A stretch of DNA of 64,000 nt from an uncultured Actinomycetes bacterium (GCA_963833555.1 CAWHYB010000006.1:45331-109330), one strand, 5' to 3'. Positions 4,707 through 63,191 are shown, counted from the stretch's first letter. Program-made: numbers and translations. The notes: generated by a model from the sequence alone, not told the origin.

Positions 4707-5486
4707 CTACGCCGCGGCGGCATCGTCCTGGGCGAGGGGGAACCCCGGCGTCGTGCGTACCACGCCAGATGAGTCGACGATCAGGCCGCTGTAGCCGCGC
4801 AGCCCCGCGACGCGCGCGAGGGCTTGGCCACCGGACGCGTACAGGCCCGTCGCCAGCGCGTCGACGAAGGCCAGGTCGGGTCCCACCACGGTCGCGGCGA
4901 GCAGCGAGTGCGCGGGCTCGAGCGTGCTCGGGTCGAACACGTGAAGCCCGCGCTCGTAGCTGCCCGAGGTGGCGACCGCGCGTGCGCTCCCGCTGAGCTC
5001 GACCACGGCCATCAGCGCGTCCGCCTCCTGCGGATGACGCAGTCCGACTCGCCAGGGCTGCCCGGGCTCGGGTTCGCCGTACGTGGCGATGTCGCCGCCC
5101 GCGTTGATCATGGCCGCGGTCACGCCGCCGCGGCGGAGCTCGGCGAGCGCCAGCTCCGCCGCCCAGCCCTTGACCAGCCCCGTCGGATCGACGCCGCCGG
5201 GCAGGCGCCAGGGGTCGAACCAGCCCCCCGACGCCTCTTTGGCGCGGCGGCAGAGCTCGAGCACCCAGGCGATGTCGGGCGGCGCGGCGTCGAGTGCGAT
5301 CTCGCCGCGCCGCACGCGGCTCATGGGGCTATCGGGCTGCCAGGTGCTGAACACGCCGTCGACGTAGTGCAGCTCGTCGACGGCGCGAGCCAGAGCGGCC
5401 TCAGATGTCTCAGTTGTCGTTGCCGCCTCCGTCGCCACCAGCGACAACGACACCACCGTGCCCATTACCTGCTCCGAGTGTTGCAT
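4707..5486 (-). CDS. apbE: FAD:protein FMN transferase (ApbE family)
   Basis: MGTVVS start, DPTGLVKGWA, INAGGDI, AVATSGSYERG, ADALATA-like FVDALATG; GGAGG RBS. Confidence 0.92.
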   Translation of the reverse strand: MQHSEQVMGTVVSLSLVATEAATTTETSEAALARAVDELHYVDGVFSTWQPDSPMSRVRRGEIALDAAPPDIAWVLELCRRAKEASGGWFDPWRLPGGVDPTGLVKGWAAELALAELRRGGVTAAMINAGGDIATYGEPEPGQPWRVGLRHPQEADALMAVVELSGSARAVATSGSYERGLHVFDPSTLEPAHSLLAATVVGPDLAFVDALATGLYASGGQALARVAGLRGYSGLIVDSSGVVRTTPGFPLAQDDAAAA

Positions 5487-5927
5487 TCGCTCCTCCCGTC
5501 GCGGCGATCTTGACGAGCGCGGCCTGCAGTGAGCTGCCGTAGGCCTGGCTCGTGTACGTGGCGCCGGAGACGGCGTGGATCGGCCCGCCGTTCGTCGCCA
5601 TGGTCTGCTGGATGAGCTGTGGGATCACGCTGCCCGATGATCTGCCCCGATTGCGGGCCCGTGGACGTTGAGCTTGGCCAGGCCCACACTGGTGAGCTTG
5701 CCGTTCTGGGCACTGACCCGGACCTGGATGTCGCCGAGCCCACCTGCCAGCGGCTGGTCTGTGCCCACCGCGGTGACGCCCGCGCCCGTTCCGGCGCTGG
5801 CGCCGACCTTCAGGCTCGCCGGCAGACCGGCGGTGGCGCCGCCGGACGGGTGGTAGCCGAGCACGAGGCCGAGGCCGACGGCGGTGGCCACGATTGCGGC
5901 TCCCGGAATGGCTGCGGAACGTCTCAT
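5410..5927 (-). CDS. Membrane-anchored FMN-binding (flavinylated) protein; frameshift near 5630
   Basis: N-terminal TM helix, GDIQVRV strand, then in a second frame IPQLIQQT...AVSGATYTSQAY with the [S/T]GA[S/T] flavinylation motif. The 3' end is uncertain (the as-read frame overlaps apbE). Confidence 0.85.
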
Positions 5928-5949
5928 GGTCTTCCTCCTAGCTCCTTCC

Positions 5950-7378
5950 TCAGAAGGCGAAGTCTTCGTGGTGGATGCGGCCGTCGGGCACGCCCAGCGA
6001 ACGGGCCGTGCCGACGAGGTTCTCCATGAACCCGCCGGGGCCGCACACATACACATCGCGTTCGGCGATGTCGGGCACCAGGCGCCGCAGATGCTGGGCG
6101 TCGAGCGGCTCCTGCGAGCGCGGTCCGACGACTTCATGAAGTCGTCCACCGCGCTCCCCGACCAGCAGCGCGATCTCGTCGCGCAGCACCAGGTCGTGCT
6201 CCTTTGAGCCGCGCAGGATCACGACCACATCGACGTGCTCGGGCAGGTCGTCGAGCATGGCCCTCACGGGGGTCGCGCCGACGCCGGCACCGACCAGCAG
6301 GACGCGGTCGGTCCCGCGGTGGTGGTGGGTGAAGGCGCCGTACGGCCCTTCGATCGCCACCGGCGTTCCCGGGGTCAGCTCGGCCAGCGCCGCGCTGTGG
6401 TCGCCACCGGTCTTGACGGTGAAGCGCATCTCGTTGCCCGCGGGCAGCGCCGACAGCGAATAGGGGTGCGCCTGCCACCACATGCCGGGCTTGAGGATGC
6501 GCCAGTGCAGGAACTGCCCGCCGGCCACGTCCAGACGCTCGAGGTGACGGCCGCGCACGACGACCGACACGACGCCCGGCGACTCCTGCTCGACGCGCGC
6601 CACACGGAGGCGGTGAGCAAGGCTGCGCACGATGGGCAGGCCGATGCGGTAGCTGAGCACGACGCCCGCGGTCAGCAGCCAGAGGCTGATCCAGAAGGCG
6701 GTCGCCAGCGGGTGGCCCAGGAACGGCGCGCCGGTGGCGATCTGGTGGGGGAACGACACCGCCGCGGCGAGGTACGTATAGAGGTGGACGTTCCACCATG
6801 TCTCGTAGCGCATCCTGCGGCGCACGTTGCGGTACGAGGTGACGCCGGCCAGGACGAGCAAACCCAGGCCGACGACGGCGCCGAGCATGCCGGGGAAGGT
6901 GGTGATGAGCACGGCGGCCTCGTGTAGCAGGCCGGTGTGCAGGCCCAGCGCGTAGCCGAGGGTGATGAGCAGTCCGTGCGCGACGAGCAGGATGATGACC
7001 CAAGGGCCCGAGGCGGCGGTGCCAGCGCACGAGCCGGTCCTGGCCGAGTGCCCGTTCGACGGCAGGGATCCTCCCGATCAGCAGGATCGTGACGAGCATG
7101 AGGTAGGTGCCGACCATCCCGGTGAACCGCCCGAGCGCGGTAGCGAGGCCGCCGGGCGCGACGAGATCGTGCATGGTCGTGACGGGCACGACGAGCGCGA
7201 CGCTCACCGCCGCTCCGGCCCAGGCCAGGAAGGTGAACAGCCGCGCCCACGCGCGCCGCGGCTTGGTGCTGGCGTCGCGGCGGGGGTGGGCTAGGGAGCG
7301 TGGGCGTGAGCGCTCGCGCTCACGCCATCCGCCTATATCGCCGTCCGCAACGGCCGGCGCGTCCCAGTCCTCTTCCAC
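5950..7378 (-). CDS. Ferric-reductase-like (MsrQ-like) transmembrane protein fused to an FAD/NAD(P)-binding oxidoreductase domain; frameshift near 7000
   Basis: TM helices with heme His (WHRR, HGLL, WNVHLYTY, HQI), HPYSLS FAD motif, EGPYGAF, GAGVGATP, VCGPGGF, C-terminal HHEDFAF. Confidence 0.9.
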
Positions 7379-8594: not shown

Positions 8595-10476
<1,882 letters not shown>

Positions 10477-10480
<4 letters not shown>

Positions 10481-12713
10481 GCGGGGCGAGCGGCGCGCCG
10501 GCCCGGCCCGGTCTGCGTCTGGAGATCGACAATCACTCCGTCTCGGTGCCGGCCGGCACGACCGTGCTGCGTGCCGCCGAGCTTGCCGGTATCGCGATCC
10601 CGTCGCTGTGCGCTCATGAGGAGCTCGCGCCCTTCGGCGGATGTCGCCTGTGTATGGTCGAGATCGTCGGTGTGCGCGGCTACCCGCTGGCGTGCAGCAC
10701 GGCCGCGCAGGACCGCATGCAGGTCACGACCGACAACGCGGCGCTGACGAGCGCTGCGGGGCGAGATCCTGGCGCTCATCCTGTCTCAGCACCCCTCGAG
10801 CTGCCTGCTGTGCGACGAGCGCGACGCGTGTGCCCGCAACCAGGCGACGATCCGCAAGGCCGGCGTGACCACAGGCTGCCGCAGCTGCCCGAGCGACGGC
10901 GGTTGCGAGCTGCAGGAGGTGGCCGCGATGATCGGGACCGGGGCCGGCGAGCCGGGCGCTTCCGCCGGGACGAACGCCGCCCAGACGGTCTCGTACCCGG
11001 TCGCCTATCGCGGCCTCGAGGTCGAGCACGACGACCCCTTCTTCGATCGTGACTACAACCTCTGCATCCTGTGCGGACGGTGCGTGCGCATGTGCCAGGA
11101 GGTGCGCGGCGCCGCGGTGCTGGCGTTCACTGAGCGTGGCCCGAGGACGCTGGTGGGACCGGCCTTCGGCCGGTCCCACGTCGAAGCGAATTGTGAGTTC
11201 TGCGGGGCCTGCGTGTCGGTCTGTCCCACCGGCGCCCTTGCCGACAAGGTCTCGAAATGGGACGGCCCGCCCGAGGCTGTCGTGGAGTCCGCCTGTCCCC
11301 TGTGCGGGCTTGGCTGCCGTCTCGAGCTCGCGGTGGCGGGCGGAGCACTGTCGTCCGCCCGCGCCGCCCGCACCGAAGGGGGCAGCAGCAGCCAGCTGTG
11401 CGTGCTCGGGCGCTTCTGTCTGCCGGAGACGACCCATCACCACGATCGCCTCCGGCGGCCGATGGTGCGCCGCGGCGGATACTTCCGCGTCGCCGACTGG
11501 GACGACGCGCTCGATGAGGCGGCGCGACGGCTGGCGGGGGTCGACGCAGCGGCGGTTCGCCTGCTCGTCTCCGGCGATCTGACCAGCGAGAGTCTCTACG
11601 CCGCGCAGCGGTTCGCCCGCGGGGCGCTTGGGCTCGCCGGCGCCGAATCGGCGACCCTGGCGGGTCTGCCGGGGGGCGCCGCCGCCTGGCGCCGCCTGCT
11701 GAGGCTGCCCGTCGCGCTGGATGCGATCGCAAAGGCCGATCTCGTGATCACCTGCGGCATCGATCCGCGCTACGCGTTCTCGCCGGTCGCGGTGGAGGTG
11801 CGGCGCGCCGTGAGGCGCGCCGCCACGCTCATCGCGGTCGACGCCCGCGAGTCGTCGCTCACGCGGATGGCCGACCAGTGGCTGCGCGCGCGCCCCGGCG
11901 ACGAGGCGCGCGCTCTGACAGGCATGCTCGACCGTCTGGATGCGGTCGCCGTCGCGCCGAAGGAGCGTCGCGGCAGCCCCGCAGTGGCCGTCGTCATCGG
12001 GCCGCGCGTCTTCGACACCGCGGGGGTCGACGGCCTGATCGGTCGGCTCGAGGGGCTCGCGCGACGCCCCGGGTTCAGCGTGCTGCCGCTCGCGCCGGGC
12101 GCCAACGTGCGCGGGGCGCTCGCGCTCGGCCTGCTGCCGGCGGCCCGGGTCGGCGCCGGTGACGGCGCCGACCCGGGTGCCCACGCCGGCGTGGCGCCCC
12201 ACGTCCTCTACCTCGCCGGCGACGTGCCCTTCACCTGGCGTCCCGCCTGCGACGTGGTGATCGTGCAGGATCTCTACCTGCCCCCGTTCGATGTCGACGT
12301 GTTCCTGCCGGCGGCGTCGTTCGCAGAGGCCGCCGGCACGCTGACCGATCTGGCGGGCGGTGTCGGACGCCCTGGCGGCCGTCGAGCAAGCCTTGAGGCC
12401 GCGACGGCGCCGGGGAAGACGGGCCGCGACCGGACTGGGAGGTCTTCGCGGAGCTCGCCGCTCGTCTCGGCCATCCCGGTCTGCGGTTCGCGGACGTCGC
12501 GGCGGTCCGGGCGGCGATCCGGACGCCGACGGCCGACTTCGCGGCCTCCGGGCCGTCGACTCTGCCCGCGACCGCGGTTCCGCTCGACGACAGCGTCGCG
12601 GGCGCGGCGCTTCACCCTCGTGCAGGTGCACCCGGCTTTCGCCATCGCGGCATCGATCTGGCGGGCGTCGTCGAGGGTCTTGCCGATCTTGAGCTCGAGG
12701 AGGGGGCGCATGA
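10477..12713 (+). CDS. NuoG/FdhA-like (BfuA-like) Fe-S subunit with a degenerate molybdopterin-oxidoreductase domain; frameshifts near 10760 and after 12350
   Basis: IPSLC...CRLC...LACST [2Fe-2S]; HPSSCLLC...C; DYNLCILCGRCVRMC and CEFCGACVSVCP; CPLCGLGC...LC; no Cys/Sec-His active-site segment. End position approximate. Confidence 0.85.
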
Positions 12714-15253: not shown

Positions 15254-17749
15254 TCAGCCGGTGTGGACCGGCGTGAGCCGCCGGGGCTGCTCGCGGCTGT
15301 CGTCCAGACGCAGCAGCATGCGCACCGTCGTGCCGTGACCGCCGGAGACGATCTCGACATCGTCGGCCAGATGCCGAATGAGGAACAGTCCCCGACCGCC
15401 GACCTTCAGCGGGTCCGGTGTGGCTTCGAGATCGAGTGTGCGGACATCGAAGCCGCAGCCGCTGTCGCTGACCTCGACGACGACCGCATCGTCGCTCACC
15501 TGGGCCGAGACGACGATGCGGCCGTCGTCGTCGCCGGCGTGCAGGATGGCGTTGGTCAGCGCCTCCTCGGCGCACAGGACGGCCTGCTGTTCGGGCCGGC
15601 CGGAGATGGCATGACGCGCGAGGTAGGCGGAGAACACCCCGCGCAACTCGCCCGCAGAGGCCCCGCGCGAGGCGAACGAGACCTCGAGGACATCGGGTTC
15701 GGCAATCGCTGGGCCCGCCCCCGGCGTCATGGCCGCGAGCTTCGGCCGCACCAGGAGGACGGCGAGGTCGTCGGCGGCTCGCCGTCCCACTCGCCGCACG
15801 TGATCGAGCACGTCGTCGAGCTGCTCGATCGTCAATGGGTCCGCCCGGTCTTGCGGGCTGGTCTCCGCCGGGTCACGACCTCCTCCGCGTGCCTGCTCGA
15901 TCAAGGCTAGCACGCCCGACAGCCCCACGCGCTGGCGGCCGCGGGCGAAGGCGAAGCAGTCGGGCAGGCCGTCGGTGTAGAAGAGCAGCGACCAGGCGGG
16001 CGGCAGGTCCACGGTCGTGACCGGCCATTCGGGATCGTCGCTCACGCCGAGCGGCACGCCGTGCCTGGCCGCCACCTCGACGACGTCGTTCGGCGTCGCG
16101 AGCAGCGGCTGCGGGTGGCCGGCGAGCGCCAGTGTCAGCCGCGCCTCGGTGGCCGCGACGCAGGCGAGGCAGACCGTCGCGAACTGGCCGTCCTCGGCCC
16201 GCTCGGCAGTGAGCACGTCGTTGAGACGCGACAGCAGCTCGTCGAACGGCGTGCCCTGCATGGCGAGCCCGTGCCACGCGGCGCGCAGCATGGCGCCCAG
16301 CGCGGCGGCGTCCGGCCCGTGGCCCGTGACGTCGCCGATGATCAGACAGATGGAGCCGTCGGGACGGGTCGCCGTGTCGAGAAAGTCGCCGCCGATCAGC
16401 AGATGGCGCTCGCCGGGGACGTAGCGATAGTCGACGGCGAGCCGTTCGCTCTGCACCGCCATCTTGGGCAGCAGGCTCTCCTCGAGCCGACGGTGGAGGC
16501 GCGCCGCTTCTCGCTCGGCCGCCATGCGCTCAGCTCGCTCGATGGCGATGGCGGCCTCGTCCGCGAAGCGGCGCGCCACCGAGAGCAGCTCTTCACCGGG
16601 TCGGTCGATCGGCTCGGTCCAGGCGAAGAACAGCAGCGATCCGACCTGTGACCCATAGGCGACTGGCAGAGCGAGCAGTGACCGGTAGCCGCGCGCCTTG
16701 AAGTAGGCCTGCAATTTGGTCGGCCTCTCGGACGGGCCGGGATCCGTCGCGGCGAAGTGGACGTGGACGTCACTGACGAACAGCGGCTGCCCGGAGCGGA
16801 CGACGCCCCCCAGGTCGGCGAGCTCGTCGAGCGTCCAGCGGTCCTCGCTCACCGTCTCGGGCGCGCGAGCGAGCAGGCGGACATCATCGCCTTCGACGCT
16901 CCAGAACGATGTGGTCGAGCAGCCGAACAGGCCGATGGCGGTACTGCAGAGCTCCGCGGCGACCTGGGCTGGGCTCGCCGTCAGAGCGAGACCGCTGAAG
17001 ATCGCCAGGACTCGTTCGATGTCGCGGCGCAGCCGCACCGACGCGGTGACGTCGGTCAGGGTGAGATGGAGCACGTGGCCCGTCGCATCGGCGAGGCAGT
17101 GCGCAGTCAGCGCGACCACCGGACCATCGTCGGCCAGCCTGACCTCGTTACGCTGCACTTCGGCGCCGGTCGCCGTCGCGCAGGCGAGCAGCGCGTCGAG
17201 CACGTCGGCGGGCAGGTCCGGGAGCAGACCGGCCAGCGGCCGGTCGTGCCAGCCCTGCCCGCCGTCGGCGCCGCGGCGCGCAAAGAGTCCGCGCAGGCGG
17301 GCGTTGGCGTCGTCGCAGCGCAGGTCCGGGCCCGAGAACAAACCCACTGCGGCGGCCGTCGATTCGAGCGTGTCGTGCACGCGCATCTCGCGTGACTCGA
17401 GTTCGGCGAACGACGTCGCGAGGCGCCGCCGCAGGCCGCCGGCCGCCGAGCCCGCGATCGCGGCGATGCCGATCCAGATGAACGCAGTCGCGACGGACGC
17501 CGGGCCTGAGATCTGGTGCGGCGGGTTGGCCACGAGAGTCACGAAGAAGAGCCCCGCTCCGGTCGCCGTGATGAGCGCCGGGACGAGCCCGGCGGTCACG
17601 GCGACGACGATGGCGACGGCCGTGGCAAGGGCGCCCGGCATGCCGAAGTAGGGGGTGGGATCGCCGAAGGCGAAGGGTGTCAGCACACAGATCTCGGCGA
17701 CCACGCCGACCAGCGCGGCCAGCCACGGCCGGCGCTGGCCGCTGCTCAT
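15254..17749 (-). CDS. Membrane-bound SpoIIE/RsbU-type PP2C phosphatase with PAS/GAF domains and a C-terminal RsbW-type anti-sigma kinase domain
   Basis: Four N-terminal TM helices; GGDFLD, GDVTGHG, YTDGL, DDLAVL; then EALTNAILHA, VSDSGCGF, GGRGLFLI. Confidence 0.9.
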   Translation of the reverse strand: MSSGQRRPWLAALVGVVAEICVLTPFAFGDPTPYFGMPGALATAVAIVVAVTAGLVPALITATGAGLFFVTLVANPPHQISGPASVATAFIWIGIAAIAGSAAGGLRRRLATSFAELESREMRVHDTLESTAAAVGLFSGPDLRCDDANARLRGLFARRGADGGQGWHDRPLAGLLPDLPADVLDALLACATATGAEVQRNEVRLADDGPVVALTAHCLADATGHVLHLTLTDVTASVRLRRDIERVLAIFSGLALTASPAQVAAELCSTAIGLFGCSTTSFWSVEGDDVRLLARAPETVSEDRWTLDELADLGGVVRSGQPLFVSDVHVHFAATDPGPSERPTKLQAYFKARGYRSLLALPVAYGSQVGSLLFFAWTEPIDRPGEELLSVARRFADEAAIAIERAERMAAEREAARLHRRLEESLLPKMAVQSERLAVDYRYVPGERHLLIGGDFLDTATRPDGSICLIIGDVTGHGPDAAALGAMLRAAWHGLAMQGTPFDELLSRLNDVLTAERAEDGQFATVCLACVAATEARLTLALAGHPQPLLATPNDVVEVAARHGVPLGVSDDPEWPVTTVDLPPAWSLLFYTDGLPDCFAFARGRQRVGLSGVLALIEQARGGGRDPAETSPQDRADPLTIEQLDDVLDHVRRVGRRAADDLAVLLVRPKLAAMTPGAGPAIAEPDVLEVSFASRGASAGELRGVFSAYLARHAISGRPEQQAVLCAEEALTNAILHAGDDDGRIVVSAQVSDDAVVVEVSDSGCGFDVRTLDLEATPDPLKVGGRGLFLIRHLADDVEIVSGGHGTTVRMLLRLDDSREQPRRLTPVHTG

Positions 17750-17814
17750 CCAGCGCGACTCGAGGAGCTCGTAGAAGCGACCGGTGAGAGCGCCGCCGCG
17801 GGCGCGCGTTGCAG

Positions 17815-17844
17815 AGTGACTGTTTTCACTGTACACATAGTGAA
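17815..17844. promoter_or_regulatory. AT-rich palindromic operator-like sites upstream of the PP2C gene
   Basis: AGTGA-N6-TCACT (17815-17830) overlapping TTCACT-N8-AGTGAA (17825-17844) in an AT-rich patch. Confidence 0.4.
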
Positions 17845-17909
17845 TAATAGGCGATTGGCGGCTCGTCACAAGGGGCAGTCGCGTTGGCTACGGCGAACAA
17901 GCCGGGGCT

Positions 17910-18830
17910 TCAGCGGCGGTCCGGTCGCGGCGGCGGCTGGTAGGTGTGGTCCTTGGCGTCCCAGCCGCCGATGCTCACCGCGACACGATAGACGCTGTTC
18001 AGGAACCCGAGCAGCACGACGCCCGGATCGTCACTCTTACGCACCTCGTCGTAGGGCAGGAGCCATTCGCCCATCGCCTCGACCCAGCCCGCCTTCGCCG
18101 GTTCGATGGGCACGGTCGCACAGCCGTCGGGGCGAGGGTGGAGGTAGGCGTAGAAAGCGGCGTGCGGGGATGAGTCGTCGCCCGGCCACAGGCCAGCGTT
18201 CAGATGTTCGGCGTCGAGGTCGTAGCGCATGATGTAGCCGCGGTCGTCTGGCGGGTGGACGTGCCTGCCGCTGAAGAGCAGTACCGCGAGATCGAACGCG
18301 CCCCACCAGAACTGCACGCCCGTGCGGCCGAAGAAGCCAGAGCGGAACTCGTCGAAGACCTCGCCGATCGAACAGAGCGCACGATGGAACCGCGCCGCCT
18401 GCCCGGTGTCGAAGGCGCGGTCATGGGTGTTGGCCGAGAAGAGCGTGGCGTCGGCCATCTCCTGGGGCTTCTCCCAGATATCTGCGACCACCTGCAGCCG
18501 CGCCAGTCCAGCCCGGAAGTCGCCCCAGACGTCGGCCACGCTGCGGTCGCCCGTGAGCGGGACCATGACCGCCGGGTCGCTGCCGGCCCGCAGCCACAGG
18601 ACGCCGTCGACCACGTCGATGCCCGCGTCGACGGCGCGACCGCCCGTGAGCAGCGGGCCGGTCACGAAGCCACGGGAATCGAGCTGCAGGCCGGTGTGCA
18701 GCCACTGCGGCAGAGGTGGCTGCAGGGCGAGCTTGAGCTTGCCGAGCATCTGGGTGTACTGGTGCAGCGTCTTGCTGGTCGGCGCCCACTCCGCATAGGG
18801 GAGCGGCGGCCACGTCGTGTGATCGGCCAT
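17910..18830 (-). CDS. DUF5996 family protein
   Basis: WPPLPYAEW..T..TLH..TQMLGK, FRSGFFGRTGVQFWWGAFDLAV, GLWPGD, AFYAYLHPRPDG. Confidence 0.85.
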   Translation of the reverse strand: MADHTTWPPLPYAEWAPTSKTLHQYTQMLGKLKLALQPPLPQWLHTGLQLDSRGFVTGPLLTGGRAVDAGIDVVDGVLWLRAGSDPAVMVPLTGDRSVADVWGDFRAGLARLQVVADIWEKPQEMADATLFSANTHDRAFDTGQAARFHRALCSIGEVFDEFRSGFFGRTGVQFWWGAFDLAVLLFSGRHVHPPDDRGYIMRYDLDAEHLNAGLWPGDDSSPHAAFYAYLHPRPDGCATVPIEPAKAGWVEAMGEWLLPYDEVRKSDDPGVVLLGFLNSVYRVAVSIGGWDAKDHTYQPPPRPDRR

Positions 18831-55028: not shown

Positions 55029-55856
55029 CTACGCGGCTGTGTCCTGGCGGGCTTCGGCGCTCGCCGGGCGCACTCGTTCTGCCAGGAACTCTTCCCAGGT
55101 CCGCCGGCCCACGGCGCGGTCGGGAGCCAGGTTCGCACCCGCGCGAATGGCGCGCGCGGCCTCGCCCGGGATCCAGACCGGCACCATCGTGCGCCGCATG
55201 CCGCGCGCCTGCAAGTACGCTCGGAGCAGGTCGTCTACCCCGTAGATGCGCGGGCCCGCAACATCGGGCACGAGCCCGGACGGCGAGCCGAGCGCCAGCT
55301 CCACGAGTCGGTCGGCGACCTCAGCGGCGTCGATCGGCTGGAACCGCATGCCCGCCGGGACCGGCAGCACCGGCAGCTTGACCATCTGCCGGGCCACCAC
55401 GAGGATCAGGTCGAAGAACTGGGCGGCGCGCAGCGCCGTCCAGGGCAGGCCGCTGTCGGTCACGACCCGCTCGGTCGCCTGCTTGGTCCCGAAGTAGCCG
55501 AACATGGTCCGGTCGATGCCGCTCGCCATCGGCACCCGGTCGGCGCCGATGACCGAGATGTAGACGAGGTGGCGCACGCCGGCCCGCGACGCGGCCCGGA
55601 CCAGGTTACGGGTCGCTTCGTCGTCGCCCTTTCTGCCCCCGGCGCAGTGCACGACGATCTCCGCTCCGTCCACCGCGGCGTCGATCCCCGCGCCGGTCAG
55701 CAGGTCGCCGACCACGTACTCGACGTCCTTGTCGGACGGGTGACTGCCGCGGCTGACAACCCGTGCCTGGCGATCGGCGTCCCGTAGACGCGCGACCACA
55801 TGACTCCCCAGGGTTCCCGTGCCGCCCGTGACGAGGATGAGAGGACCAGTGCTCAT
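55029..55856 (-). CDS. Atypical SDR / NmrA-like NAD(P)H-binding protein
   Basis: ILVTGGTGTLG, HLVYISVIG, YFGTK, LRAAQFF, QPIDAAEVA. Confidence 0.9.
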   Translation of the reverse strand: MSTGPLILVTGGTGTLGSHVVARLRDADRQARVVSRGSHPSDKDVEYVVGDLLTGAGIDAAVDGAEIVVHCAGGRKGDDEATRNLVRAASRAGVRHLVYISVIGADRVPMASGIDRTMFGYFGTKQATERVVTDSGLPWTALRAAQFFDLILVVARQMVKLPVLPVPAGMRFQPIDAAEVADRLVELALGSPSGLVPDVAGPRIYGVDDLLRAYLQARGMRRTMVPVWIPGEAARAIRAGANLAPDRAVGRRTWEEFLAERVRPASAEARQDTAA

Positions 55857-55945
55857 GACGGCAACCTCCACGGATGTCGATGGCTGTTTGAGGTCAGTAC
55901 CCATGGCTGCTCTGTTGCAGACAAGCGCGCTGAATGAAACCGGCG

Positions 55946-56034
55946 GCCTAGAACAGGTCGGTGACCGTCGCTGAGATCGCTTCGTCGACGCGCTCGGGGC
56001 AGTCGGTGGCCGTGACGTCGCAGAAGCTGCGCTC
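55946..56034 (-). pseudogene. Orphan 3' end of a paralogue of the Cas4-like nuclease at 60436-61080 (diverged direct repeat)
   Basis: SFCDVTATDCPERVDEAISATVTDLF* vs AWCDVTASDCPERVDEALSVTVTDLF*; 71/89 nt identical to 60434-60522 by manual alignment, including the stop codon. Confidence 0.85.
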
Positions 56035-56167
56035 GCCTTGCCTTGAGCGTCCTGGCGGCCAACACGGAATGACGACAAGTCCTGGGATCCCATGGTCACG
56101 AGCAGCGTTTCGTCGTCTTGGGACCGCTCCGATGCCCGCGAGCTGGGTGGCGCCGTTGTCAGCCCCG

Positions 56168-56198
56168 TTGACAACGTGAGACATGGCGACTGTATGCT
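56168..56198 (+). promoter_or_regulatory. Candidate sigma70-type promoter for the amidohydrolase leader
   Basis: TTGACA (56168)-N19-TATGCT (56193); the spacer is longer than optimal. Confidence 0.5.
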
Positions 56199-56460
56199 AC
56201 GGGCGTGTCAAGTGGGGGTCTGACCCGAGAGAGCGGCGTCTTACCGCACGATCGGGTCGCCAGGGGGGTAACGAGCGGTGCAGGTCCATCCCGTCGCCTT
56301 GTCGCCGAGGCTCGTTCGACTCAAAACGCCTTCGTTTCCGACCACGTCGTGAGCTCCCGCTCAGCGTGGTCGGCGGCCTGAACCTTCCTGAGGAGGTGCG
56401 ACGGCTGATCGCCGTCGCTCCCAGCAGGACCGGTAACTCGAGCCACGGAAGGTGATCTCA

Positions 56461-58330
56461 GTGAGTCAACGTTTCACGCGTCTCGCGCTGCTTCTGGCGC
56501 TGGCGCTCGTCGTTCTTGCCCTGTGCGCACCCCTCGCGCAAGCGAAGCCCCGGGCCGCCGACACGGTCTTTCTGAAGGGACGCGTCGCCGCCTACCAGGG
56601 CTACAAGACCGACTCCAGCAACTGGAGCTGGCAGAGTGCCGTCGCCGTGAGGGACGGCAAGATCGTCTATGTCGGCACACAACGCCGAGGCCCGGCGCTT
56701 CGTCGGCGCCGAGACGGAGGTCGTGAACCTCAAGGGCAAGATGATGATGCCCGGCCTGGAAGACGGACACACGCACCTGCAGGGGTACGTCGCCTGCAAC
56801 ATGGATTACGAGGGCGGCACGATCGACTACATCCTCGGCAAGATCAAAGCCGCTCTCGAGAGGTCCGACCAGGCCGACATGCTGCACAGCAACTTCGTGC
56901 TGACCTGCAGCTACCTAAGCGGAGCTTCCATCCTGCCGTCCGGCACCCAGCTGACGAGCCACGACCTCGACCGTCTGAGCCTGCCCCTTGACTCCGGCGA
57001 TGCCATGGCGACGGGCACGACTCGCCCGATCGTCGTGACCGATCTCGACGGGCACAAGAAGTGGGTGAACAGCCAGGCGATGCTCAACGCCGGCATCGAT
57101 GCCGACACACCCACGCCGCCTGGCAGCACCATCGGCCACTACCCCAACGGCGAGCCCAACGGCTTCTTCTCCGACTACACCCCGCCGGCGCCCTGGGGAG
57201 ACTCGACGGCGGCGAACGACAAGTACGCGGGGTTCGTGACCTCGCTGCAGCTCTACAACGAGACGGGCACGACCAGCATCGAGAAGGCCAGTGGTGTGCT
57301 GGCCGACCTGCCCGTCTGGAAGCAGATCGCAGACGACGGCAAGCTCACCATGCGGGTGAACTCGCAGGTGACGGCCGCCTGGGTCCATGGAATGACAGAC
57401 CCAACTGCAATCCAGGCAAAGATCGACGAGATGAATGCGGCCAGAGCCGAGTACAGCGGCTACAAGAGCCCCAACAGCCCGGGCTCGTTGACGGTCGACA
57501 CCGCCAAGATCTTCGCCGACGGCGTCGCGGAGTATCCGGCACAGACGGCCGCCATGCTGCAGCCCTACAACATCAACATCGGCACCGACGAGAACCCTCT
57601 CTGGGTGATCGGCTCGAGCCGCGGAGCGGACCCGACGGTGACCGATGCCGTCCCCGGCTTCCTCGCCCTCGATGTCAACCACTGGACGATCCACGTGCAC
57701 GCCATCGGCAACCGCGCCGTGCGCGACACGCTCGACAACTACGAGCTCATCGAGCAGACCAACCCGAAGTGGGACCGTCGCGAGCAAATGGTACACGTGC
57801 AGTTCGTCGACCCGAAGGACATGCCGCGTTTCGGTCAGCTGGGCGTCGTTCCCGACATGCAGCTGCAGTGGGCCGAGAACGACAGCTACACGATCGATGC
57901 CCTGCAGCCCTTCGTGAGCCCGCTGGTCTACAAGACGATGTACCCGACGCGCAGCCTCATGCTGGGCGGCGCCGTCCTTGCAGCCGGCAGCGACTTCCCC
58001 GTCGATGCGCTCGCCCCATGGCGGCAGATCGAGCAGACCGTGACGCGCGCCGGGGTGCCCGACGAGAACATGGGCATCTATCCGGGCGCACTCCTCTACA
58101 AGGAGCATCTCACGCTGAAGCAGGCCCTGCGCATGGCCACCATGGGCACGGCCTATCAGCTGCATCAGAACAAGGTGACAGGCTCGATCAAGGTCGGGAA
58201 GTTCGCCGACCTCATCGTGCTGAACCAGAACCTGTTCAAGATTCCGGCGAGCAAGATCCGGGACACCAAGGTCCTCATGACCATGGTCGGCGGCAAGGTT
58301 GTCTGGCAGGATCCATCGAACCCGCTGTGA
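56461..58330 (+). CDS. Secreted YtcJ/NfdA-like amidohydrolase (amidohydrolase 3 family); frameshift near 56690
   Basis: Signal peptide (AQA), AVAVRDGKIVYVG, PGLEDGHTH, KIFADG, HVHAIGNRA, HVQ, AGSDFPV, GSIKVGKFADLIVL. Confidence 0.9.
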
Positions 58331-58399
58331 CTGACTCGCAGCGCCGCTAGACAAGTCGCCCACCGCACCGGCGTCTGATTGGCGGCGGCCATGGTCGAT

Positions 58400-58437
58400 G
58401 GGGCGGGGTGAGGGCCGCGAGGCCCTCACCCCGCCCC
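58400..58437. terminator. Perfect 17-bp hairpin between convergent genes
   Basis: GGGGCGGGGTGAGGGCC-GCGA-GGCCCTCACCCCGCCCC with a GNRA loop. Confidence 0.75.
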
Positions 58438-58464
58438 AAGTAGCGCGGGGGACCGGCGCGGCAT

Positions 58465-58980
58465 TCAGAGACCCGCCAGCGTCCTTCGCACGTCCTTCAT
58501 CAGGATCATGAGCTGGAGTGGGTTCGCCGGCGACGGCTCGAAGCCGTGGCGCAGGTAGAAGGTCCGCGCCCGCTCATCCTTCGCGTGGACGACCACGATG
58601 CGTGCGCCGAGAATGACCGCAGCCTCGGCGCAACGCGCGAGCGCCTCGATCAGCATCGCGCTGCCGATACCGCGGCCCTGCTCGGTCCGGTCGACGGCCA
58701 AGCGGGCCAGAAGGATCGCCGGGATGTCGTGTGGCCCTTGCCCCTTGGCGGCTCGCTCGGTCGCGTCCTCTGCGGCCAAACTCGTCGCCGCCAGGCTGAA
58801 GTACGCGACTACGCGGCCGTTGCGCACGGCCACGTAGGTCCTCGACTTGCCGGCCCGTTGATCGGGGAGCGCCTGCCCGGTCAGGTAGTCGTTGAGCGGG
58901 CCGACGCCGCAGTCGAAGGCTGCGATCTCATGTGAGGGGTCGAGTGGGGAGGGACCGAGGAAGGGGTCAGCCGTCGGCAA
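58465..58980 (-). CDS. GNAT acetyltransferase toxin (TacT/AtaT/KacT type)
   Basis: FDCG..LNDYL, LLARLAVD...GRGIG, VHAKDERARTFYLRHGF; TTG start overlapping the antitoxin stop. Confidence 0.9.
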   Translation of the reverse strand: MPTADPFLGPSPLDPSHEIAAFDCGVGPLNDYLTGQALPDQRAGKSRTYVAVRNGRVVAYFSLAATSLAAEDATERAAKGQGPHDIPAILLARLAVDRTEQGRGIGSAMLIEALARCAEAAVILGARIVVVHAKDERARTFYLRHGFEPSPANPLQLMILMKDVRRTLAGL

Positions 58981-59242
58981 ACGGGCTGCGCCTAGAGGCG
59001 GCCTCGCGCAGACCGGGGAGGACGCGCGCGGGGCGGTCGAGGCGGGCGACGAACTCATCCCACTTGTCGGCGGGAACGACGAAGCGCGTCTGGTCGGCCA
59101 GCACTTCTTCGGCGGCACGCAGCGTCGCCTGCAGCATGAACTGACTGAGCGGCATGTGGCTGAGGCTGGCGGCCTGCTCGACGACCGCCTTCTCATCCTC
59201 GGTCACCCGGATGTTCAGAGATTTGTCCTTCACGACCGCCAT
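58967..59242 (-). CDS. DUF1778 ribbon-helix-helix antitoxin (TacA/AtaR/KacA type)
   Basis: LNIRVTEDEKAVVEQAA...LSQFML...AAEEVLAD...WDEFVARLDRP; GGAGG RBS. Confidence 0.92.
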   Translation of the reverse strand: MAVVKDKSLNIRVTEDEKAVVEQAASLSHMPLSQFMLQATLRAAEEVLADQTRFVVPADKWDEFVARLDRPARVLPGLREAASRRSPFADG

Positions 59243-59280
59243 GGCGGCATGACCTCCGACTGGATTTGACTGCGCGGACA

Positions 59281-59309
59281 GTGTACCCACAGGTGGTGGG
59301 CATGTACAC
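59281..59309 (-). promoter_or_regulatory. TA operon promoter/operator with GTAC half-sites
   Basis: Inverted repeat GTGTAC(59281)...GTACAC(59304); on the - strand TGTACA-N17-TACACT, so the half-sites coincide with the -35 and -10 boxes. Confidence 0.65.
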
Positions 59310-59398
59310 ACAATGTCAACACAAGCTTGCGACAAGACCAGTAGCGGCTCGGCCTCGTCGCCGTCGTCTTTACGGCTTGAACTTGGTGAGTAGCTACC

Positions 59399-59536
59399 TC
59401 CCTGAGCTACCTCTCACTCGAGGGCCTGCAGGACGCCATCGGCCTGCCCGCCGAGCTGTTCACGCGCGAGGGCTTCACCTGCGAGTATCCCGTCCCCGTC
59501 CCAGAGCAACCGGAGATGGAGAAGCTGCGCTTCGGG
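59399..59536 (+). pseudogene. purF: Degenerate 3' fragment of amidophosphoribosyltransferase
   Basis: SLSYLSLEGLQDAIGLPAELFTREGFTCEYPVPVP...EKLRF matches the PurF C-terminus (DSLxYLSLEGL...CxACFTGEYP); the Cys ligands are lost and there is no upstream gene body. Confidence 0.75.
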
Positions 59537-59615
59537 CGTGGGGCGGCCTGATCACAACACGGGAGCCGTGCACGGCGTAGTCGACTGGAGGTCTGTTGAC
59601 GATTCGCCTCGCCCG

Positions 59616-59698
59616 TTGACTTGGCGCCTCAGGAGGGGATAATCACTCCACTGTCCCCGTGCTCGACGCGGGGCGCGAAGCCGCCTCCGGGCGGCTTC
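59616..59698 (+). ncRNA. Candidate short two-hairpin RNA with its promoter, upstream of the NYN gene
   Basis: TTGACT-N16-GATAAT (59616-59643); hairpin 59655-59673; perfect 9-bp hairpin GAAGCCGCC-TCCG-GGCGGCTTC (59677-59698) followed by a pyrimidine-rich tail. Confidence 0.4.
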
Positions 59699-59724
59699 TG
59701 CTTCATCTGGGGGGATTTGTCACC

Positions 59725-60389
59725 TTGACAGAGAGTGTCGAGCTGAAGCCGAGCACCTCCGTGTACATCGATGGCTTCAACTTCTACTACGCGGCTTTCC
59801 ACCGGGCGAACTTCGGCTCCTACAAGTGGCTCGATCTTCCCGCGTTGTGCAAGGTCGCCTTGCCTCGCAACGACATTCAGCTCGTTCGGTACTTCACTGC
59901 ACCACTCAATCCGTCGCACGGGCGGGCGGGTCAGCGCGCCAGGCAGGATACCTACCTCCATGCTCTCCACACGCTGCCCGGGCTCTCGCTCCACTTCGGC
60001 CAGTTCGTCGAGCATGCGAAGACACAGAGGTTGGTTCATCCCCCGAGAGGTGCGGCGAGAGCGGCCGAGGTGTGGGTGCCAGAGGAGAAGGGCAGCGACG
60101 TGAACCTCGCCACGTACTTGCTGCTCGATGCGTTCAAGGCCGCGTGTGACGTGGCTGTGGTCGTGTCGAACGACGCTGACCTGCTGGAGCCGGTGCGGAT
60201 CGTGCGTGAGGAACTCGGGCGAACTGTCGGCGTGTTGCGGGTCGAGGGCGGTCAGCGACGCTGCATATTCGCCGGACGCGTCGACTTCATCCGGCCCTTG
60301 CGCGAGCGGCATTTCGCTGTAAGCCAGTTGCCCGCAGTCGTGGCCGACTCAAGAGCAAGCAGTTCAGGTGCCCGCCAGAATGGGCATGA
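59725..60389 (+). CDS. NYN-domain (PIN-like, LabA/DUF88 clan) ribonuclease; indel near 60352
   Basis: YIDGFNFYY, YKWLDL, VRYFTA, EEKGSDVNLA, VVSNDADL; the shifted frame gives the natural end KQFRCPPEWA*. Confidence 0.87.
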
Positions 60390-60435
60390 ACTGCCGCCGC
60401 CCGTATGGGCGGCGGATGTAGCGTCCTTCGCCCGC

Positions 60436-61080
60436 CTAGAACAAGTCCGTGACGGTCACCGACAGCGCCTCGTCGACCCGCTCGGGGCAGTCGGACGCAG
60501 TGACGTCGCACCACGCGCACTCCGAGGCGCTCGCGGCCTTCGGCGGCGCCTCGGCGGCCGCGGCGACGTCCATGTACTCCTTCAGCATGGCGCGGAAGCG
60601 GTCGTCGACCTCGGACGCCGCGATCGCGACCGCGTCGTCGCGGTACTGCACCTCGCCGCGCAGCCGCCGGCCCCGGCAGTGCACGACGCTGGCCGGCAGC
60701 GCGACCATGTAGGTGAGCACCTGCAGCTTGTCGGAGGTGCGCTCCTTGCCGGTCTTGCAGTCGATCACGAAGGCGTCGTCGCCCTTGACGGCCACGATGT
60801 CGGCCTTGCCGGCCAGCGTGGCCCCGCTGGCGCCCTTGAGCTTGAAGGCGTTCTGGCCCTCGAGGTAGACCGCGTAGCCCTGCGCCCGCAGCTCGTCGGC
60901 GCGGGCGTGGAGGAGCTGCGTGTGCTCGGCCGTCCACCTGGCCAGGTCGAAGTCGCTGGGCAGCTTGGCGTAGGAGTGGTTGGCCCGGAACCAGAGCTTC
61001 CAGCGGCACGACTCCTCGCCGGCCATCTGCTTGGTCAGCCAGGTGACCCAGACGTAGGTGCTCGATCGTGGTTCGGCCAT
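60436..61080 (-). CDS. PD-(D/E)XK (RecB/Cas4-like) nuclease with a four-Cys Fe-S staple
   Basis: N-terminal SCRWKLW Cys; GKAD, IDCKTG, QVLTY motifs; C-terminal CAWC-x6-C. Confidence 0.85.
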   Translation of the reverse strand: MAEPRSSTYVWVTWLTKQMAGEESCRWKLWFRANHSYAKLPSDFDLARWTAEHTQLLHARADELRAQGYAVYLEGQNAFKLKGASGATLAGKADIVAVKGDDAFVIDCKTGKERTSDKLQVLTYMVALPASVVHCRGRRLRGEVQYRDDAVAIAASEVDDRFRAMLKEYMDVAAAAEAPPKAASASECAWCDVTASDCPERVDEALSVTVTDLF

Positions 61081-61184
61081 GGCGTGACTCCCGGGATCGC
61101 CGCAGGGACTACAAGGCTACTCGCGGGCGGGGACGGAAGAAAGGGGCGCCGCCGGCGGCGAGTTCGGCGAGGATGAGCTGCCAA

Positions 61185-63191
61185 CTACTCGGCGGAGAGC
61201 ATACGGATGCCGCACTCCTGCAGCCAGCCTGCGGTCTCATCGAGTTCGGGCATCGGCGGGATGAAGATGATCGAGCAGTCACGCCCGCGGGTGAGCAGCA
61301 CGCGATAGGCGTTCAGGCGGAGCTGGAAGGGATCCCGAACGTGAGCTGAACGAGCGTGCCGTTTCGCCCAGGCGTTGGACCACCGGCTACGAGCGCGCAC
61401 GAGGTCCAAGCCCCACGCGAGCAGGACGCCGTCGAGCTCCAGCCCCTGGGCGCCGAACTCGGTCACGCAATCTCGCAGATGGCGACAGGAGTACTGACTC
61501 GCGTGTTCGTTGTCGCCGTACCACGGTCCGAGGCGCAGGTTCTTCGTGTCATGCCATCCGTTGCGCACGCCCCAGTCTTCGAGCGCTTTGTCTCGGGATG
61601 AGGCTAGCAGGCCGAAACGAGCCTCCGGCGCGTCCGCGTAGCGAGCGCGCAGATAGTGACGCGCCTCGTTGAGGTCGCGCGTCATGCGCAGATGGTAGGC
61701 CTGCTGTTCAAGGCGGCTGGCCAGCTCGCGACAGTGCGCGGCGACTGAGCCCGCCTCGCCTTCGCACACCTCGTCCGGCCAGGCGCGATCATCCGCCAGT
61801 AGCCCGTCGACCCAGGCGTCGAGATCGGAACAGAAGTGGAAGCGGAGTTCGACTTGCAGGTCCAGCGCCTCGTCGGCAGTCAGCAGGGCGGGAAGGGTGG
61901 CGCCATCGCTATCGTCGCCGGCAAAGAACTCATCCAAGACCCGCTGTGGCGCATGGACAGTCCAGTCGTCGGGTCGACCGGCCTCAGCGAGCGCGCCGCG
62001 CCACTGTCCGAGACCCGCCTCCTCTCCGGTGTTGATCTCCTGGCCGGAACCGATGAGCCCAACGAGCACGCACCATTCCGGGATGCGCTCGCCGAATTCC
62101 ACGAACGCCTCTGGTTCAGAGCGGTGCTGACGCAGCTCGGGGTGCTTGGCGATCACCTGATCAAGGTCCCAAGCACGCTGTGCCTCGTCGTAGACAATCA
62201 CGTGCTGCGGAGGCACCGCGGCCTTGTCGCCGAGGTACTGCTTGACGTAGTTCTTCACGTCGCGAACGAAGGTCTTGCCACTGCCGCCAGCGTCGCGCAG
62301 CTCGTACTGCAGCACCTGCACCAGCGGTCCGTTCCCCGAGAGGAAGATCGCCGGCGCGGACGGTTTGCCGCCAGCACGCTCCACCGCGAGGTCATCCAGA
62401 GCGGGGTTGTGGACGGCGCTGAGCCCGACAAGGGTCTTGCCCGACCCGGGTACCCCCGTGACGAGCACGAGATGCCGTGAATGCGTGTGCGCGGCCTCGT
62501 GGGCGATGCGAGCGATCTCATCGATGGCCGGCTGGGTTGCGGCGCGGGCACGATGAATCGGTCTGATCTTGTTGTCCAAGAACAGCTCGCGAGCGGCCTG
62601 GACGAGAGTGGGGAGTGGGCAGTACGCGTCACGCGCAAGGAACTCATCGGCGGTCAGTGCACCATCGTCCCACGGTCGCTGGAGATCCTGGATCAGCTCG
62701 TGGAGGGCGTCGGGGCCGGCGATGTGAACGCCATCGTGCACCCCTGCGTACCCGTGCGCCCGCGTCGGCACGACGACCGCATGAACTTCTCGTTCGGCAC
62801 AGTGTCGGTGATAACAGCGAAGGTCGCGCGCATACGCGGCCGCTTGGTCGAGATCCGCCTGTTCGGGTTCTTGCTTGCCCTTGAGCTCGAGGACAACGAT
62901 CGCGCCACTGACGAGCAGCACGACGTCGGGTCGCCGCGACTCCATCGGCAGTTCGTACTCGAGAATGGCAGTGTAGGAGTCGGCGAGGTCGTCGAGGACG
63001 ACGACCTCGCCGACCTCATGCTGGAGTTTCGGAATCGACTCGTCCCAGGCGAAGACTTGCGACTCGCTCACATCGGCGAGGAAATCCTCGAGCGAGATGC
63101 GGACGATCCTGGGCTCGGTCTGCGAGAACGTCGGGAAGTCGCTCTCCCAACCGCAGCGAGCGCGTGCCGCGTCACTCGGCTTGATCACCAC
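61185..63191 (-). CDS. DUF2075 (Schlafen group 3-type helicase) protein with an N-terminal PD-(D/E)XK nuclease domain
   Basis: RRPDVVL...LELKG...QAAAY nuclease; GVPGSGKT Walker A, YDEAQRAW Walker B, GSGQEI, EFGAQGLELD, NAYRVLLTRGR. Confidence 0.88.
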   Translation of the reverse strand: MVIKPSDAARARCGWESDFPTFSQTEPRIVRISLEDFLADVSESQVFAWDESIPKLQHEVGEVVVLDDLADSYTAILEYELPMESRRPDVVLLVSGAIVVLELKGKQEPEQADLDQAAAYARDLRCYHRHCAEREVHAVVVPTRAHGYAGVHDGVHIAGPDALHELIQDLQRPWDDGALTADEFLARDAYCPLPTLVQAARELFLDNKIRPIHRARAATQPAIDEIARIAHEAAHTHSRHLVLVTGVPGSGKTLVGLSAVHNPALDDLAVERAGGKPSAPAIFLSGNGPLVQVLQYELRDAGGSGKTFVRDVKNYVKQYLGDKAAVPPQHVIVYDEAQRAWDLDQVIAKHPELRQHRSEPEAFVEFGERIPEWCVLVGLIGSGQEINTGEEAGLGQWRGALAEAGRPDDWTVHAPQRVLDEFFAGDDSDGATLPALLTADEALDLQVELRFHFCSDLDAWVDGLLADDRAWPDEVCEGEAGSVAAHCRELASRLEQQAYHLRMTRDLNEARHYLRARYADAPEARFGLLASSRDKALEDWGVRNGWHDTKNLRLGPWYGDNEHASQYSCRHLRDCVTEFGAQGLELDGVLLAWGLDLVRARSRWSNAWAKRHARSAHVRDPFQLRLNAYRVLLTRGRDCSIIFIPPMPELDETAGWLQECGIRMLSAE

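Follow-up and report, generated by a model that had tools for sequence, protein, structure and literature searches.

A diverged direct repeat of a Cas4-like nuclease gene's 3' end around a patchwork of cargo genes: a candidate relic of a second gene copy in an uncultured member of the Actinomycetes

The element e14 and phage 21 integrate into the icd gene of Escherichia coli and leave behind the 3' pseudogene icdC, according to a passage of PMC13626634 that cites Hill, Gray and Brody (1989). Here we describe a locus of similar outward form in a 64,000-nucleotide (nt) stretch of DNA from an uncultured Actinomycetes bacterium (G000:C6:45331-109330; this whole stretch is called the window below), in which a direct repeat of the 3' end of a solo Cas4-like nuclease gene brackets 4.4 kb of other genes. 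As in e14/icd, an insert is enclosed by direct repeats of the 3' end of a protein gene, a displaced C-terminal fragment lies at its far end, and the gene itself is kept intact by an alternative tail whose differences are mostly synonymous. Unlike e14/icd, the window has no integrase on its contig, includes backbone in the enclosed DNA and has a stub with a non-resident tail, and no empty site was seen. The e14/icd system is the closest formal look-alike, and it is in the recombinase, the wholly foreign content and the reciprocal chimera that the likeness fails. On balance, we favor the explanation that the repeat is the leftover tail of a second, diverged Cas4-like copy, once located directly upstream of an NmrA/YbjT-like gene and cut by a replacement that brought in an amidohydrolase gene and a TacAT toxin-antitoxin (TA) pair.

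Two other kinds of system invite comparison. Gene-fragment relics that border insertions and deletions in accessory and defense islands have in common with the locus a short in-frame 3' fragment with a sharp break beside foreign DNA, a second, unrelated stub (here purF-like) at the other edge, the lack of a recombinase, and modular neighbors (the TA pair, an NYN gene and a DUF2075 gene). Our case fits such ordinary relics, and is unlike them in that the intact parent gene lies only 4.4 kb away on the same strand with a recombinant tail, so that the arrangement mimics an attachment-site duplication. Homologous recombination in conserved genes that flank an island is an established route for swapping its cargo at defense and variable-region hotspots. 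The mosaic tail of the intact nuclease gene fits an exchange of this kind in a conserved flanking tract, which by itself leaves no duplicated stub.

The two members of the repeat, at 55946-56034 and 60434-60522, are identical at 71 of 89 nt and at 65 of 77 in the first 77 nt counted from the stop-codon side, exactly the counts given in the original prediction, which had been made from the window's sequence alone. A repeat search returned 55941-56022 against 60429-60510, with 83% identity across 82 nt on the same strand. When the intact nuclease gene was compared by blastn with the whole 2.5-Mb genome, the stub was found with E = 2.6e-17 and the runner-up match had a value of 2e-5; at the protein level the stub matches the intact nuclease with E = 2.6e-9, and it aligns to positions 185-214 only of a hidden Markov model (HMM) for the nuclease family, built from 27 members (i-E, the E-value of the individual domain, = 2.9e-7). 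A six-frame search with this HMM detected no further remains of a second nuclease gene in 55-60.5 kb. The 25 codons common to the stub and the intact copy include eight with synonymous differences only and three replacements (S>T, L>I, V>A), in keeping with the predicted predominance of synonymous change, and codon alignment bears out that the first Cys of the C-terminal CxxC, an iron-sulfur (Fe-S) Cys, has become Arg in the stub. The prediction had also placed the limit of homology at the CxxC motif, which holds for the comparison with the partner copy but not with the family consensus SECRFCD, against which the stub continues for four more codons (GAG CGC AGC TTC, read as E-[C>R]-[R>S]-F); this puts the break at ~56037-56040. 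The genes it had named between the repeats, an amidohydrolase (Amidohydro_3), a TacA1 and GNAT pair, a purF-type C-terminus and an NYN gene, were all recovered.

At its other end the stub terminates in an intact stop codon, 83 nt from the NmrA gene. The 63 nt between this stop codon and the DNA homology of the NmrA region, which ends at 55884, gave no match anywhere, and the 3' flank of the stub has no homology with the 3' flanks of orthologues. The nearest allele to the stub is that of the metagenome contig L152 (84.8% over 92 nt). Over 72 nt, the stub differs from its partner at 12 positions, from L152 at 11, and from most other alleles at 11-17, and it is no closer to the alleles of genomes G025 or G019 than to others. 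In the 24-nt tail it has nine mismatches to the resident type, represented by L028, and four to L152. Since the stub is about equally far from its partner and from alleles of other genera, and the differences are mostly synonymous, it derives from a different, once-functional allele rather than from a recent local duplication, as judged from few sites: the arguments on the nuclease tail and the stub rest on 24-72 nt.

A second stub lies toward the other edge of the bracketed DNA. This fragment of a purF-like gene matches the 3' end of its counterpart in relatives with 87-88% nt and 84-89% amino-acid (aa) identity; the counterpart adjoins SnoaL-NmrA in contigs L123, L124, L129, and L130 (two independent lineages). 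To the other purF of the same genome, on contig C3, the fragment has only 46% aa identity. In the contigs with NmrA orthologues, written with DUF2075 on the plus strand (the reverse of the window), the backbone reads DUF2075(+), a variable stretch, abhydrolase(-), purF-like(-), SnoaL(+), NmrA(+), followed in some relatives by TacAT(+). The purF stub of the window keeps the order and orientation of these relatives, with NmrA on one side and DUF2075 on the other, and the gene order on both sides of the window locus agrees with their backbone. The purF stub is therefore a backbone relic still in place, and what the two nuclease 3' ends enclose is no single foreign insert. The cut 5' ends of the Cas4-like and purF-like stubs both point to the same 3.35-kb stretch. 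The features of the region are as follows:

55029-55865, minus strand: NmrA/YbjT-like gene, backbone anchor (81-85% aa identity to relatives)
55948-~56037, minus strand: Cas4-like 3' stub, pseudogene relic (last ~30 codons and stop)
56038-56214, no strand: spacer of 177 nt (self matches only)
56215-58398, plus strand: amidohydrolase (YtcJ-like) module, leader and gene at ~56420-58330 (Pfam Amidohydro_3, E = 1e-64)
58399-58438, no strand: perfect 18+18 GC-rich palindrome, repetitive extragenic palindromic (REP)-like or terminator-like (inverted-repeat search)
58465-59242, minus strand: TacAT module, GNAT toxin at 58465-~58980 and TacA antitoxin at 58967-~59242 (Pfam; TacA1 E = 2e-20)
59386-59554, plus strand: 3' relic of a purF-like paralogue, ~50 codons, with a 44-codon PurF-type C-terminus (identity to relatives)
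59616-60321, plus strand: promoter-like site and NYN-domain gene (PADLOC HEC-09, E = 6e-32)
60436-61080, minus strand: intact solo Cas4-like PD-(D/E)XK nuclease gene, 214 aa, four Cys (Pfam, PADLOC)
60436-60462, minus strand: recombinant tail of the intact nuclease gene, last 8 codons and stop (allele divergence)
61081-61144, minus strand: conserved promoter-like motif and leader, 5' edge of a ~710-nt Cas4-like unit (homology shared by the alleles)
61185-63191, minus strand: DUF2075/Schlafen-group-3 helicase gene, backbone anchor (PADLOC PDC-S41; 80-85% aa identity in relatives)

The remaining contents of the block also suggest separate histories. Among 60 relatives there is no amidohydrolase orthologue of >36% identity, and copies with 99% identical proteins are found on six ~2.3-kb contigs from other samples (Logan contigs L142-L147), whose homology to the window begins at 56215 and whose left flank differs, being the start of a divergent open reading frame (ORF). 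The amidohydrolase module is thus independently mobile. The first ~170 nt of these contigs are occupied by this divergent ORF, which begins MPRKTYRPEEIIAKLRE, and the contigs all end there. We take this start, short as it is, to resemble those of the OrfA transposases of the IS3 family. Of two loci with 94.5% identical flanks, G019:C9 has the TacAT module and G019:C6 does not. The module, which adjoins NmrA in other relatives, is likewise independently mobile. The filled and empty loci correspond to L023 ~5866-6921 (G019:C9), with a ~1-kb TacA and GNAT module, and L022 ~5384-5420 (G019:C6). One GC-rich palindromic hairpin (GGGCGGGGCGGCGAGCT..AGCTCGCCGCCCCGCCC) is present at the empty locus and a copy stands on either side of the module at the filled one; the hairpin is also listed at L024 ~4875-4910, and the perfect palindrome that follows the GNAT gene in the window (58399-58438) is related to it. 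Judged by these comparisons, the enclosed 4.4-kb block is a patchwork of a backbone relic and at least two independently mobile modules, and not one element.

The intact nuclease resembles Cas4 and the solo Cas4-like/RecB-family PD-(D/E)XK nucleases in its PD-(D/E)XK signature, its four-Cys Fe-S pattern (C25, C188, C191, and C198, invariant in the 27 sequences) and its matches to Pfam PDDEXK_1 (PF12705; E = 4e-9, 37 bits), Cas_Cas4 (PF01930; 23.3 bits against a cut-off of 22.7) and the PADLOC Cas4 models (E = 6e-9). Unlike Cas4 as a CRISPR adaptation nuclease, its gene has no adjacent cas genes and no CRISPR-cas adaptation module beside it, its neighbors being DUF2075 and NYN, and a survey of 80 nuclease loci from many phyla revealed no conserved neighbor gene (the largest neighbor cluster comprised seven loci). 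Adjacency of DUF2075 (PDC-S41) and the nuclease was seen only in the window and in its closest alleles, L028 and L151. The two genes do not form an obligate pair, since other relatives (L123-L130) keep DUF2075 (80-85% aa identity) and lack the nuclease; a search of one literature library found no account of DUF2075 with Cas4, nor of PDC-S41.

The boundaries of the nuclease gene's homology are sharp. Homology between the window and the alleles of G003, L029, L152, and L153 begins 59-66 nt before the nuclease ATG, a promoter-like motif (CTTCCGTCC..CGAGTAGCCT) is shared ahead of the gene, and homology between alleles stops at the stop codon or ≤16 nt beyond it. The alleles of G003 and L029, for instance, are 93% identical over 709 nt and have unrelated flanks on either side. 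These comparisons show the solo Cas4-like gene moving as a ~710-nt unit with sharp boundaries, from promoter-like site to stop codon. Within the neighborhood under study the unit is found after DUF2075 (window, L028, and L151), directly after SnoaL (L153, L162, and L163) and 4 kb after TacAT (G025 and G019). In L029 the gene upstream of the unit (460-1551) is given as SRA_ScoMcrA and NmeDI_C in a precomputed table; our own Pfam scan returned no match for it (E ≤ 0.001).

The 3' end of the gene is where alleles and neighbors change. L028 and L151 are the closest alleles of the intact gene (93-94% nt identity) and have the upstream DUF2075 end in common with the window; directly after the nuclease stop codon they carry a DUF3800 gene, where the window carries NYN instead, a difference in downstream genes between nearly identical alleles that recalls cargo exchange through flanking genes. 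All ten 3' flanks that were compared (those of the two window copies and eight orthologues) are unrelated, and every lineage compared carries different DNA from the stop codon on. Relative to L028 and L151, the body of the intact gene is 3-4% divergent and its last 24 nt are 38-42% divergent, with 10 of the 36 mismatches located within the last 30 nt (Fisher p = 1e-6). The nearest allele to this tail is that of L152 (12.5% divergent). As in flanking-gene exchange, the switch of allele type occurs just past the best-conserved tract of the protein, DCPERVDEA, and the last 24 nt are recombinant. The nuclease gene of G003, with a body like that of L029 (6%) and an end like that of L028/L151, is a second, independent case, and the last ~25-70 nt of the gene have been exchanged repeatedly between alleles. 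Most of the differences between G003 and L029 crowd into the last 150 nt (gene positions 495-640; the two being 93% identical overall).

The favored explanation can be set out in steps. A second Cas4-like unit of ~710 nt, with an allele of the L152-like type, would have been the immediate upstream neighbor of NmrA. Illegitimate recombination, in a single replacement or in a few steps, would then have introduced ~56038-59385, which comprises the spacer and the amidohydrolase and TacAT modules, at the expense of SnoaL, of ~560 nt at the 5' end of the second nuclease copy and of ~1.4 kb at that of the purF-like gene. What remained would be two 3' stubs with their cut ends turned to the insert, the Cas4-like one at 55948-56037 and the purF-like one at 59386-59554; a single replacement across divergent genes would account for the truncation of two unrelated genes on the sides that face one and the same stretch. 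The intact nuclease gene beside DUF2075 would be a separate copy on the same strand, and the bracketing repeat therefore a by-product of having two copies within a heavily reshuffled accessory island rather than an attachment-site pair. This is the lost second paralogue that the original prediction had itself entered as a caveat. The former presence of a full second copy upstream of NmrA, and the origin of both stubs in one event rather than several, are what we infer. Loci with two copies do occur among the 80 surveyed, and only in two of them: L120 has two full copies on one strand a few kb apart (5671-6312 and 9947-10636; 48% aa identical), and L100 has an intact copy and a frameshifted or decayed one on the same strand (9917-10648 and 17707-18297). 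Both are genomes of Dehalococcoidia/SAR202, and one L120 copy is without the N-terminal Cys segment.

Several observations weigh against this explanation. A nuclease copy directly upstream of NmrA was not found in relatives (five NmrA contexts), and in the lineage with SnoaL followed by the Cas4-like gene the next gene is not NmrA. The closest relatives of the window belong to other genera (81-85% aa identity for NmrA), and because of this distance the ancestral gene order is itself only a reconstruction. The codon-position argument on the stub draws on only 12 differences, and the explanation does not account for the 177-nt spacer between the stub and the amidohydrolase module (56038-56214), which has no match. 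The sequence is also burdened with indel errors: the window belongs to a metagenome-assembled genome (MAG) of nine contigs and 2.5 Mb that is 52% complete, on a contig (C6) of 145 kb, and aligned with short-read contigs the window's amidohydrolase region has 52 gaps in 2.2 kb. The frameshifts in the amidohydrolase gene (two frames, at 56452-58330) and in the purF gene of C3 (several, at C3:37.6-39.2 kb) are such assembly errors and are therefore no evidence for pseudogenes. Finally, the stub may have been imported already cut.

The prediction had read the nuclease gene as an insertion hotspot in which an integrated element supplied a replacement 3' end. In full, a circular element would have entered the resident nuclease gene at its 3' end by a site-specific (e14/icd-type) or a single homologous (Campbell-type) crossover, bringing its own last ~75-90 nt of the gene and displacing the native end, which would be the stub, and it would later have lost its recombinase and gained or lost cargo; we regard this as improbable. 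The direct repeats of the 3' end on one strand speak for it, as do a 16-nt identical core between them, the non-resident states Phe and CGC in the 5' part of the stub, and the differing DNA downstream in all lineages, which bears out the predicted variability of the cargo. The first half of the reciprocal chimerism expected from such a crossover is also present, in that the intact gene joins an L028/L151-like body to 24 nt of foreign type at its end. The second half does not hold: the integration model needs a stub tail of the resident type (L028/L151/G003), and the tail is instead nearer to L152 (4/24 mismatches against 9/24), so that the comparison with orthologues, suggested as a way to recognize the native 3' end, yields a pattern that does not fit a simple swap. 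Moreover, the purF-like backbone relic lies within the block, still placed and oriented as in the ancestral order, and none of five NmrA contexts showed the empty site that the prediction called for, a nuclease gene with NmrA immediately after it; SnoaL or abhydrolase stands upstream of NmrA instead. The integrase sought beyond the window is equally absent from contig C6, on which there is no tyrosine integrase (PF00589) match; the five such matches in the MAG are on C2, C5, and C7, and neither a serine recombinase (PF00239) nor an rve transposase (PF00665) was matched in the whole MAG, at its 52% completeness. The window holds no tRNA genes or Rfam RNAs as integration targets, and neither edge of the inserted stretch bears terminal repeats, inverted or direct, beyond the level of shuffled controls.

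The wider surveys point in the same direction. Of the 89 genomes of the family that were searched for 3' fragments, 19 carry the nuclease gene and only that of the window has a 3'-only fragment (0/18 others); at the 80 surveyed loci the only second copies are those of L100 and L120, which are whole or decayed paralogues. A tyrosine integrase occurs within 10 kb at one of the 80 loci (tblastn with three integrase queries), that of G009, where it is convergent with the Cas4-like orthologue and lies 70 nt after its stop codon; this remains the best single point for the nuclease 3' end as an attachment site somewhere in the family. The integrase (G009:C95, PKYG01000088, at L025/L046 6845-8134) has a Phage_integrase and a SAM-like domain with a zinc-ribbon-like CxxC..CxxC insert, and the contig ends inside its gene. 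What survives of the hotspot idea is that the downstream edge of the nuclease gene behaves as a junction for variable cargo, given the differing flanks, the recombinant last 24 nt and the one integrase; the part that called for a single integrated element with a replacement 3' end is not supported, in view of the purF relic, the separate modules and the lack of a recombinase, and nothing speaks for the further suggestion that the nuclease itself aids in cargo capture. It is improbable that the repeat records the integration of a single mobile element into the nuclease gene.

If the stub was never a full gene in this genome, it would be the cut edge of an imported fragment that was joined illegitimately upstream of NmrA, from a donor with a Cas4-like gene near TacAT or the amidohydrolase. 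This is unlikely in our estimation, even though the layout of G025 and G019:C9 (TacAT, ~4 kb of opposite-strand genes, then a same-strand Cas4-like gene) matches the TacAT-amidohydrolase-stub order of the window, the stub is nearest to the foreign L152 allele, and the 63 nt beyond its stop codon match nothing. The exact, intact stop codon 83 nt before NmrA is a better fit to a whole gene unit, the separate movement of the amidohydrolase and TacAT modules leaves a single imported fragment not evident, and the alleles of G025 and G019 are no nearer to the stub than others. The same ~710-nt unit could alternatively act as a discrete mobile cassette, with the DCPERVDEA tract and tail serving as a recurrent recombination site for the swapping or addition of downstream cargo and stubs such as that of the window being footprints of such recombination; we give this little credence as the origin of the repeat. 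The machinery in that case could be indicated by GC-rich REP-like hairpins at the cassettes (TacAT in G019:C9, the Cas4-like unit in L153) together with a Y1/HUH transposase. In L153/L162 the unit lies between two hairpins of the GGGGCGGGG..CCCCGCCCC type, at positions ~270-320 and ~1030-1070, and the genome of the window has a single Y1/HUH (IS200/RAYT-type) transposase gene, at C3:4127-4459. An assembly chimera, in which a long-read contig joins two strains or loci and the two nuclease 3' ends belong to different molecules, would be in line with the gaps against short-read contigs, the several frameshifted genes and the incomplete MAG. We deem it very improbable, because the two copies are only 83% identical and hence too divergent to mislead an assembler, while the flanks of the stub are unique and the gene order on both sides fits the backbone of relatives.

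The locus carries a caution, in that cargo bracketed by two diverged copies of a gene's 3' end can pass for DNA between a pair of attachment sites. In the comparison with relatives the enclosed DNA is a patchwork that includes old backbone, and the best account of the repeat is a small accessory gene present twice, once in truncated form. The boundaries of the Cas4-like unit, the exchange of its tail and the variable DNA after its stop codon may be useful for understanding how defense-type genes are shuffled in uncultured Actinomycetota.

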